A DNA stretch of 64,000 nucleotides from Escherichia coli (GTDB lineage: Bacteria; Pseudomonadota; Gammaproteobacteria; Enterobacterales; Enterobacteriaceae), in NCBI RefSeq assembly GCF_016026235.1, contig NZ_CP065613.1; one strand, 5' to 3'. The position numbers and the translations under genes were made by a program. Below the pieces are notes generated by a model. It ran no database searches and was not told the DNA's origin. It saw only the letters and a list, made by a program, of their open reading frames with translations. This document shows, one piece after another, positions 36,036 to 37,919 of the stretch (position 1 is the first letter of the stretch; every line of letters begins with the position of its first letter).

Positions 36036-37919
36036 ATGATTAAAAAAGCTTCGCTGCTGACGGCGTGTTCTGTCACAGCCTTTTCCGCTTGGGCACAGGA
36101 TACCAGCCCGGATACTCTCGTCGTTACTGCTAACCGTTTTCAGCAGCCAGTAAATACTGTCCTTGCACCTACTGATATTGTTACCCGTGAGGATATTCAA
36201 CGCTGGCAGTCGAAAGACCTCAACGATGTTATGAGTCATCTCCCCGGTGTAAATATCTCTCAAACTGGTGGAATGGGGACGAGTTCTTCTCTGTATGTTC
36301 GTGGCACTGAATCGCGCCATGTTTTAGTGTTGATTGACGGTGTGCCGATGGCTCGTGCCGGTATCGACAATGCAATTGATATTAGCCAGTTCCCGGTATC
36401 ACTTGTACAGCGTGTTGAATATATTCGTGGGCCGCGTTCTGCCGTTTATGGTTCTGGTGCCATCGGAGGTGTGGTGAACATTATTACAATGAGTAATGAT
36501 GAGAAAGCTCAGATCAACGCAGGAATGGGTACAAATGGTTATCAAGCCTATGATGGGGTAATAAATAAACGTTTTGGCGATACGATGGTAACAGCAGCAG
36601 GTGCTTACCAGACGACCAAAGGTTTTAACATTCAGCCTGGCTCACCATACAGTGGTGATAGCGATCGCGATGGATATCGCAACAAACTTTTCTGGGGGGG
36701 GCTGCAGCATAAGTTTAACGATAACTTCTCGGGGTTCTTCCGTGGTTACAGCTACACAGCTAATAATGATTACGACCAGGGCTCGATGTATGGTTCTGCT
36801 ACTGGCAACGAAGAAGCTCAGAATTACAACCAGTCCTGGGATACTGGCCTACGCTATAACTCCGGCATCTATTCGTCTCAGTTAATTGCTAACTATCAAC
36901 GACTCAAGAATTATAACTACACAAATAATCTTGGTCGTTATGCGGGAGATGCCACCCTGGATGACATGGAACAGCGTTATATTCAGTGGGGTAATAGCAT
37001 TGAGGTAGGGCATGGTGCAATTAGCGGCGGGATCGATTGGAAACAGGAAAAACTGACGTCCAGCAGCATTACAAAATCAGATGATTACGAACGCGATACC
37101 ACCGGGTTATACCTGACTGGACAGCAACAGATTTCCAATGTGACTTTGGAAGCTTCTGGCCGAGAAGATCATGATGAACAGTTTGGCTGGCATGGTACCT
37201 GGCAGACAGCTGCTGGCTGGGAGTTTATTGATGGCTACCAGGCAACACTTTCTTACGGTACCAGTTTTCTTTCGCCTTCTCTTGGACAGCAATACGGGGC
37301 TGCTCGCTTTGCTTCAATTTATGGTCCTGGTATTGCAGCCAACCCAAATTTGAAGCCAGAAGAATCTAAACAGTGGGAGATTGGAATTGAGGGGGTAACT
37401 GGGACTCTGGATTGGCGGCTCTCAGGATATCGTTATGAAATTCAAAACCTGATTGATTATAAAAGCATAAATAATGTCAACCAGTACATTAATGTGAAAT
37501 CAGCCACGATTAAAGGGCTGGAATGGACGGGAAATATTACAACCGGTCCTGTTGAACATCGCTTGACGTTACAATATGTTGACCCGCGCGATGATGAAAC
37601 AGATAAAGTGCTGTACCGTCGGGCAAAACAGCAGGTTAAGTACGAGTTGACTGGACAAGCTTATGGTTTCGAATGGGACGTTTCTTACCAATATATAGGT
37701 CAACGATACGACAACGCTTATGACGAGACCTCTGGCTCATCACATACAGTTAAATTAGGCGGTGTGAGCTTGTGGGATCTTGCGGTTGCATATCCGGTCA
37801 CCTCTCACCTGACAGTTCGTGGTAAAATAGCCAACCTGTTCGACAAAGATTATGAGACAGTCTATGGCTACCAAACTGCAGGACGGGAATACACCTTGTC
37901 TGGCAGCTACACCTTCTGA
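36036..37919 (+). CDS. btuB: TonB-dependent outer membrane vitamin B12 receptor; divergent mosaic allele
   Basis: ORF 35991..37919, trimmed to the ATG giving [10 protein letters not shown]; signal peptide, TonB box DTLVVTANR and the last 53 aa match my recall of K-12 BtuB, but the central region is strongly divergent and the protein is 627 aa against 614 aa. Confidence 0.85.
   Translation: [627 protein letters not shown]

Follow-up and report, generated by a model that had tools for sequence, protein, structure and literature searches.

The question raised by this locus is how a single gene came to combine two ordinary Escherichia coli ends with an interior of very different sequence, and what this means for the receptor that it encodes. 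The gene is btuB, in a stretch of 64,000 nucleotides of E. coli DNA from contig NZ_CP065613.1 (assembly GCF_016026235.1); this whole stretch is referred to as the window, and positions are counted from its first letter. BtuB, usually treated as conserved, is known from textbooks as the receptor of phage BF23, of E-group colicins and of many T5-like phages that have been proposed for use in biocontrol. In a preliminary description of the window, the interior of btuB was proposed to have been replaced by recombination with a distant allele, with the ends and the regulation kept. This proposal was supported here by the junctions, by the diversity of the flanks and by the foreign affinity of the interior. 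It is very likely, taken as a whole, that the gene is a recombinant mosaic, that its interior, a cassette here named T2, has spread in E. coli, and that the function of the receptor was kept with changed docking.

A divergent core between ordinary ends

The btuB coding sequence of the window (36036–37919, plus strand, 627 aa) was taken from the list of open reading frames, and a RefSeq record that is 100% identical annotates it as BtuB. For comparison with K-12, the K-12-type locus L001 was used as the reference and identity was calculated in sliding windows of 60 nt. The flanks were found to be 99–100% identical to L001, from about 33420 to 36140 on the left and from 37758 to about 40650 on the right. 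Mismatches become dense at 36141 and remain so up to 37757, so that the junctions lie between 36140 and 36141 and between 37757 and 37758, and the limits that had been claimed for the block hold to the base. The block itself (36141–37757, plus strand) comprises codons 36–574, which encode most of the plug, barrel strands 1–20 and loops L1–L10. Its identity to K-12 is about 55% in nucleotides and about 50% in amino acids, and the 60-nt windows within it range from 35 to 83%, with several indels. Over the entire protein the identity to K-12 is 57%, with 100% for residues 1–35 and 575–627, 63% for the plug and 46% for the barrel. The strongly substituted interior was therefore correctly recognized, and the peptide strings quoted for it agree with the BLASTP alignment. 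The indels and the greater length, 627 aa vs 614 aa in K-12 or 13 more residues, were likewise recovered by alignment.

The composition of the block also differs from its surroundings. Its GC content is 0.456 and its GC content at third codon positions (GC3) is 0.414, vs 0.501 and 0.51 for the K-12 block and a GC content of 0.521 for the whole window; only three of the 312 windows of 1617 bp taken over the 64 kb are equally AT-rich. The impression of an AT-rich block was thus justified. In the sliding-window comparison of identity the breakpoints were sharp, and uniform identity to K-12 along the gene was not seen.

Outside the block, the locus is of ordinary E. coli type. The leader contains a cobalamin riboswitch aptamer (35781–35970, plus strand; Rfam RF00174, 87 bits with a gathering score of 31.5), and all 60-nt windows across 35675–36064, which include riboswitch and leader, are 1.00 identical to K-12. 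The 5' segment of the gene (36036–36140, plus strand) encodes the signal peptide and the TonB box DTLVVTA in codons 1–35, and the 3' segment (37758–37919, plus strand) encodes the last 53–54 codons with the final barrel strands and loop L11; both are 100% identical to K-12 in amino acids. Synonymous single nucleotide polymorphisms (SNPs) at 36071, 36077 and 36080 and one further difference at 37790 are the only differences from K-12 in btuB outside the block. Alignment to the K-12-type locus and BLASTP thus agree with the preliminary description that the riboswitch, the first 35 codons and the last 53 codons are K-12-like. The statement that these last 53 codons overlap murI needs correction, since only the last 56 nt of btuB (37864–37919) do so. 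The murI gene (glutamate racemase; 37864–38721, plus strand, from the annotation of the identical record) is part of the conserved right-hand homology, and the left neighbor trmA (34567–35667, minus strand, from the list of reading frames and the annotation) is of ordinary E. coli type with 97–100% identity to K-12. Judged from these alignments, the btuB of the window is a mosaic, in which a T2 interior sits in an ordinary E. coli leader and ordinary ends.

Core types and the spread of the T2 cassette

The core types were counted in 5,426 complete E. coli genomes by searches with the block alone. The K-12 type, T1, was found in 4,962 genomes, with 95–100% identity within the type except in 13 of them. 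T2 was found in 283 genomes, in which it is always at least 99% identical, present in one copy, located at the native locus and never on a plasmid. Two further types, T3 (612 aa, DNA 69% identical to T2) and T4 (614 aa, DNA about 75% identical to K-12), occur in about 90 and about 92 genomes, respectively, the latter comprising 79 genomes at 99% identity or more and 13 at 90–99%. T1 to T4 together cover essentially all of the genomes; T2 has a frequency of about 5%, and T2, T3 and T4 jointly reach about 9%. The carriers of T2 include the enteropathogenic E. coli (EPEC) strain E2348/69 (RefSeq record 'variety 2').

T3 and T4 are also mosaic and have flanks identical to those of E. coli, for example in E. 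coli NCTC9699 for T3 (locus L086, 3396–5234) and in locus L092 for T4 (3501–5345). The left junction of T4 falls on the same nucleotide as that of T2 (position 3442 of L001, equal to 36141 of the window), that of T3 is in the same place, and the right junctions of the E. coli mosaic types lie within about 50 nt of one another. The T3 core protein is 91–92% identical to those of Citrobacter amalonaticus and C. sedlakii, and its 90%-identity protein cluster also includes C. amalonaticus, C. farmeri and E. fergusonii. From these sequences, the swap of the btuB core is not a one-off event, and E. coli has at least four cassette types.

How the T2 cassette spread is indicated by the comparison of its carriers. 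Between E2348/69 and the window, 4 of the 1617 sites of the block differ, compared with 53 of 2623 sites in the left flank and about 32 of 1333 in the right flank, and the nearest flank SNPs are 61 nt and 21 nt away from the block. Eight T2 carriers of various serotypes and hosts differ pairwise by a mean of 0.29% within the block, compared with 1.58% for the left flank and 1.71% for the right flank, a five- to six-fold difference; flank SNPs occur up to 36122 on the left and from 37778 on the right, and the junctions are common to all eight. The same junctions were found in a divergent Escherichia lineage (L005), in which the block is 1.9% diverged and the flanks about 6%. Because the diversity of the block is far below that of the flanks and the junctions are alike, recombinational replacement followed by spread is indicated. 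On these diversity data, the T2 cassette is younger than its chromosomal backgrounds or has moved independently of them.

The location of the junctions can also be explained. Exact-identity runs of 23–57 nt between K-12 and foreign loci are present in the leader and start region and at the 3' end of btuB and the start of murI (47–57 nt at the latter between K-12 and foreign genera), and essentially none are present inside the block. Runs of 23–57 nt are long enough to seed homologous recombination. Their clustering at the two ends explains why independent cassettes have common boundaries. The mosaic would thus have arisen by homologous recombination, with crossovers in the only long near-identical stretches; on the left these are the riboswitch, the leader and the region of the TonB box, and on the right the end of btuB together with the start of murI. 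After entry into Escherichia, the cassette would have moved between E. coli lineages by ordinary homologous recombination, as the diversity data suggest, to reach its present frequency beside at least two other mosaic cassettes, T3 and T4. Phages and bacteriocins probably maintain these several alleles side by side through frequency-dependent selection.

A parallel situation was found in Salmonella enterica. Its T1-like BtuB (614 aa, 87% identical to K-12, in a cluster of 5,032 sequences) and its T2-like BtuB (618 aa, several entries of which are on 800 to more than 1000 contigs) are both encoded between trmA and murI. When a T1-like and a T2-like locus were compared (L099, 4001–5845, and L003, 4001–5857), the flanks were 98–100% identical, and the divergent block spanned from nt 114 of btuB to 131 nt before its stop codon, a few tens of bases from the E. 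coli junctions. The T2 of E. coli is 82% identical to the Salmonella T2-like protein and 50% identical to the T1 of E. coli itself. The btuB classes therefore segregate at the same locus in both species, and the alleles group by class, not by species. It has been stated in a paper on a phage cocktail that BtuB identity among non-typhoidal Salmonella serovars is above 90% (PMC10972627); the dimorphism seen in these S. enterica sequences contradicts this statement.

Several other observations concern btuB variation in E. coli. The SNPs at 36071, 36077 and 36080 lie in signal-peptide codons 12, 14 and 15; they are present in the T3 and T4 examples (NCTC9699 and L092) and not in the T2 allele of E2348/69, and they could either have been left over from a donor tract or be a polymorphism that is common in E. 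coli. Strain HS-01 (L087, 3896–5720) has a natural hybrid btuB, with a T2 plug up to the equivalent of about 36480 in the window followed by a diverged T1-like barrel. The crossover of this hybrid is within a conserved plug segment, and the gene is frameshifted and annotated as a pseudogene, as is the frameshifted T2 allele of 2014C-3338 (L097, 2596–4478). The T1 cores of K-12 and CFT073 (L001, 3442–5019, vs L089) are 4.8% diverged, with about 2.5% in the flanks, and the 13 exceptional T1 genomes noted above have T1-like cores only 80–95% identical to K-12. From these comparisons, even the common T1 type is unusually diverse.

In 69 complete genomes, mostly of Shiga toxin-producing E. coli (STEC), a btuB-like gene that is 89.6% identical to the T4 core was found at non-native chromosomal sites. 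The LAA and LPA islands have been reported to carry a btuB homologue (PMC9729726), and the additional STEC copy is probably this gene; it could be a reservoir for the T4 cassette or a relative of it. Two candidate types were rejected. An apparent third class of 372 genomes (95–99% identity at 80% coverage or more) came from the joining of flank pieces, and its example PapRG-04-4 has an ordinary T1. A protein labelled E. coli (P0160; 79% identical to K-12, 638 cluster members) was considered as a fifth allele at the native locus and discarded, because its two ends (74% and 87%) do not resemble those of E. coli; it is probably an additional, island-borne copy of btuB.

Another variable segment is located to the left of btuB, where the alignment to K-12 breaks at about 33400. 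Between sthA (29159–30559, minus strand) and fabR, two genes without a K-12 counterpart at this position occupy 30889–33414, one of the M20 aminoacylase family (30889–32055) and one for a citrate-proton symporter (32098–33414). This insert is present in E2348/69, CFT073 and PapRG-04-4 and absent in K-12, NCTC9699 and HS-01, which indicates that it varies independently of the btuB type.

The receptor encoded by the T2 allele

The T2 product was compared with models and structures of BtuB. It passes both BtuB equivalog profiles, with 1042 bits for NCBIfam NF007926 (cut-off 836) and 665 bits for TIGR01779 (cut-off 599.7), and T1, T3 and T4 are likewise above both cut-offs. The Pfam domains Plug and TonB_dep_Rec are on record for it, and its TonB box is that of K-12. 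In an AlphaFold model (predicted local distance difference test score 80, predicted template modelling score 0.82), a plug is placed in a 22-strand beta-barrel. In a Foldseek search of this model against the PDB, the top 12 matches were BtuB, 11 of these being crystal structures with a template modelling (TM) score of 0.92–0.95 (target-normalised) and a root-mean-square deviation of 2.4–3.7 Å. By its profile scores, TonB box, riboswitch and predicted fold, the T2 product is a BtuB.

Between T1 and T2, identity is lowest in the extracellular loops. With loop definitions and lists of contact and calcium residues for K-12 taken from the literature (PMC7360065), the identity between T1 and T2 was calculated as 64% for the plug, 52% for barrel strands and turns and 36% for loops L1–L10. 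Single loops range from 11% (L3) and 19% (L2) through 27% (L5) and 30% (L8) to 100% for L11, which belongs to the E. coli-type 3' segment and is identical across all four E. coli types. Loop L7 of T2 has an 11-residue insertion, and indels are also present in L2, L3, L8 and L10. Among the cobalamin contacts, those in L11 are identical and many in L2, L3, L8 and the plug are substituted. Three of the five calcium-cage aspartates (D193, D195 and D230) are kept, as is Y229.

T2 is the sole btuB copy, with an intact reading frame, in nearly all of its carriers, and in many other species no BtuB but a T2-like one was found at the locus. Because this sole, intact copy is riboswitch-controlled and such alleles are the only BtuB of many species, B12 uptake is inferred to be retained by T2, and the product would still be a riboswitch-controlled, TonB-dependent cobalamin transporter. 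The extracellular loops, which would be the docking sites of BtuB-dependent phages and E-group colicins, are almost entirely different in T2. Given this loop divergence, changed susceptibility to colicins and phages is plausible, and T2 probably alters docking or susceptibility for some BtuB-dependent phages and E colicins. In Yersinia, differences in BtuB loop 7 have been reported to track sensitivity to a T5-like phage (PMC8624392).

Origin of the T2 core and its significance

The core protein of T2 is 80–87% identical to BtuB of Citrobacter, Kluyvera, Klebsiella spallanzanii and many Salmonella serovars and subspecies, and about 50% identical to K-12, so codons 36–574 would derive from a BtuB lineage that is far removed from T1, the majority type of E. 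coli. The proteins of Citrobacter (sp. Marseille-Q6884, MGH106 and portucalensis) and Kluyvera and the 618-aa Salmonella BtuB belong to the same sub-lineage as the T2 core and are encoded at the same chromosomal locus. Their genes differ from T2 in having a GC content of 0.49–0.56, 5' and 3' ends typical of their own species and at most 82.7% nucleotide identity, and because of this last value none of them is the donor. The BLASTP search for the donor lineage recommended in the preliminary description thus succeeded in finding relatives (Citrobacter, Kluyvera and Salmonella) and not in finding the donor, as the best DNA match remained at 82.7%. The named members of the 90%-identity protein cluster of T2 are all E. 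coli, except for one label shared across Enterobacteriaceae.

Two database entries needed care. The best match labelled "Salmonella Saintpaul" (L091, GCA_016412205.1) was rejected as a second relative, since over 6.3 kb it is 98.3% identical to the locus of Citrobacter sp. Marseille-Q6884; judged by this identity, it is not a Salmonella allele. Locus L079, labelled Chryseobacterium sp. 18061, carries a btuB locus of Enterobacteriaceae type, with a T1-like core (76% in amino acids) and homologues of trmA, yijD and murI that are 78–80% identical to those of E. coli. Both assemblies look mislabelled or contaminated.

Several findings weigh against the full explanation given at the outset. The closest DNA outside Escherichia, that of Citrobacter sp. 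Marseille-Q6884 (L090), is 82.7% identical across the block, and no donor above this value was found among 5.8 billion proteins, one genome per each of 100,044 species and the members of the 90%-identity cluster. Because trmA (82.4%) and murI (80.6%) of E. coli and this Citrobacter are diverged to nearly the same degree as the block, no sampled genus appears as a recent donor of T2, and a recent import between genera is not demonstrated by these sequences. The block GC content of 0.456 is below that of every sampled T2-like relative, which suggests either an unsampled donor or a long evolution as a rare, poorly recombining haplotype. The low diversity within T2 is also expected of a rare allele class that was maintained for a long time. 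With regard to function, two of the five calcium-cage aspartates are changed in T2 (D179N and D241E). In addition, E2348/69 is among the strains of a study in whose text resistance to Shigella sonnei colicins is ascribed to just two wild isolates of E. coli, neither of them E2348/69 (PMC10924462). This hint may mean that E2348/69 is still sensitive and that T2 still admits some colicins, so full or blanket colicin resistance of T2 is not to be assumed.

With respect to timing, the cassette was possibly imported from an unsampled lineage, perhaps via a cryptic Escherichia clade, and an old polymorphism shared across genera is possible as well. The latter leads to the most substantial alternative, in which T1-like and T2-like cores were already both carried by the ancestor that Escherichia shares with Salmonella and Citrobacter and were then preserved in every lineage by balancing selection, and the flanks were homogenised up to the core edges by recombination within species, leaving an island of old divergence without recent import. 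The occurrence of both classes at one locus in E. coli and S. enterica with near-identical block boundaries agrees with such an ancient balanced polymorphism, as does the similar distance of the T2 block and of the flanking genes from Citrobacter; T3 and C. amalonaticus give a similar picture (block 81.7%, trmA 85.1%, murI 80.3%). The presence of T2 in the divergent Escherichia lineage is also expected under it, and so is low internal diversity in a class with a frequency of about 5%. However, the GC3 of the block is below that of E. coli T1 and of all sampled T2-like relatives, which would be odd after tens of millions of years of residence in E. coli, and the 1.9% divergence of the block from that Escherichia lineage is a third of the flank divergence, which points to later transfer and not to co-descent. 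Moreover, named Citrobacter and Kluyvera species hold different btuB types without phylogenetic order, so horizontal exchange does occur. An ancient balanced polymorphism is considered rather unlikely, but possible.

Other explanations are far less probable. Conversion of the native gene by a further btuB copy, located on a mobile element or genomic island of E. coli itself and without transfer from another species, could be imagined from the 69 genomes with a non-native copy and from the homologue reported on the LAA and LPA islands. However, the island copy resembles T4 and not T2, and the T2 block is always single and at the native locus. Nothing above 77% identity to the block was found in the plasmid and phage collections, where the matches are chromosomal fragments or non-mobilizable records, so a mobile-element vector for T2 was rejected and this kind of conversion is very improbable. 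A fast-evolving surface receptor might also have diverged rapidly at its own locus, under relaxed or positive selection and without recombination, and the elevated divergence between the T1 cores of K-12 and CFT073 fits this view. The view is effectively refuted by the abrupt change from about 45% nucleotide divergence with saturated silent sites to flanks diverged by 0–1%, by the 80–87% protein identity of the block to alleles of other genera and by the identical block in unrelated E. coli backgrounds. A chimeric contig, contamination or another sequencing or assembly artefact is firmly refuted: the reading frame is intact, the same allele and junctions are found in 283 independent complete genomes and on at least 1000 contigs, and the window is 100% identical to the RefSeq record NZ_CP065615.1 (E. 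coli FDAARGOS_943) over the 2.3 kb compared (35700–38000). The recombinant mosaic with a spreading T2 cassette thus stays the preferred explanation.

The T2 allele shares with the K-12 BtuB of the known structures (1NQE, 1NQH, 1UJW and 2GSK) the trmA–murI locus, the riboswitch, the signal peptide, the TonB box, the last 53 residues, the predicted fold and the equivalog models, and differs from it by a barrel identity of 46–50%, an L1–L10 identity of 36%, 13 more residues and two calcium-cage aspartates. A surface-receptor gene with conserved ends, a swapped core and several discrete types is in itself an already known phenomenon. The fliC gene of E. coli and Salmonella and the Neisseria genes for FrpB/FetA and HmbR are mosaic surface-protein genes of this kind, with conserved ends and a swapped variable middle. 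They resemble btuB in having conserved termini as anchors, a divergent exposed center and discrete types per species which are shared across related species. In contrast to them, btuB has as anchors a riboswitch leader with the TonB box and the overlap with the essential murI; the exchange goes beyond the loops to the whole barrel, with its membrane strands, and to most of the plug; and selection is presumed to come from phages and colicins and not from host antibody. The btuB of the STEC islands is likewise a diverged btuB-family gene in E. coli, close to the T4 core as noted above, and differs in being an additional copy elsewhere on the chromosome that is unrelated to the T2 core and does not replace the native gene. 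Public databases contain the T2 allele in abundance, listed simply as BtuB. A full-text literature search, which did not extend to subscription journals and so leaves room for an earlier description, yielded no account of naturally occurring btuB types in Enterobacteriaceae.

The broader significance can be proposed only tentatively. It is conceivable that btuB is a serotype-like, multi-allelic locus across Enterobacteriaceae, in which a limited number of deeply diverged cores (T1 to T4 and others) have been kept for a very long time by phage and bacteriocin pressure and exchanged within and between genera as cassettes between the riboswitch/TonB-box region and the murI overlap; the btuB type would then be a major and so far ignored factor in deciding which strains of E. 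coli and Salmonella can be infected by BtuB-dependent phages, T5-like or other, and which are sensitive to E colicins. The common junctions illustrate cleanly, in nature, how recombination of a receptor cassette can be anchored at fixed points, here by a riboswitch leader on one side and by an essential gene that overlaps the other end. A BtuB surface essentially unlike that of K-12 is encoded in about 9% of complete E. coli genomes, among them that of the reference EPEC strain E2348/69, and a comparable alternative is common in Salmonella. If the types differ in docking, btuB typing would improve the prediction of host range and the design of phage cocktails and colicin therapeutics, and the difference would help to account for the many wild isolates that resist BtuB-dependent agents without loss of B12 uptake.

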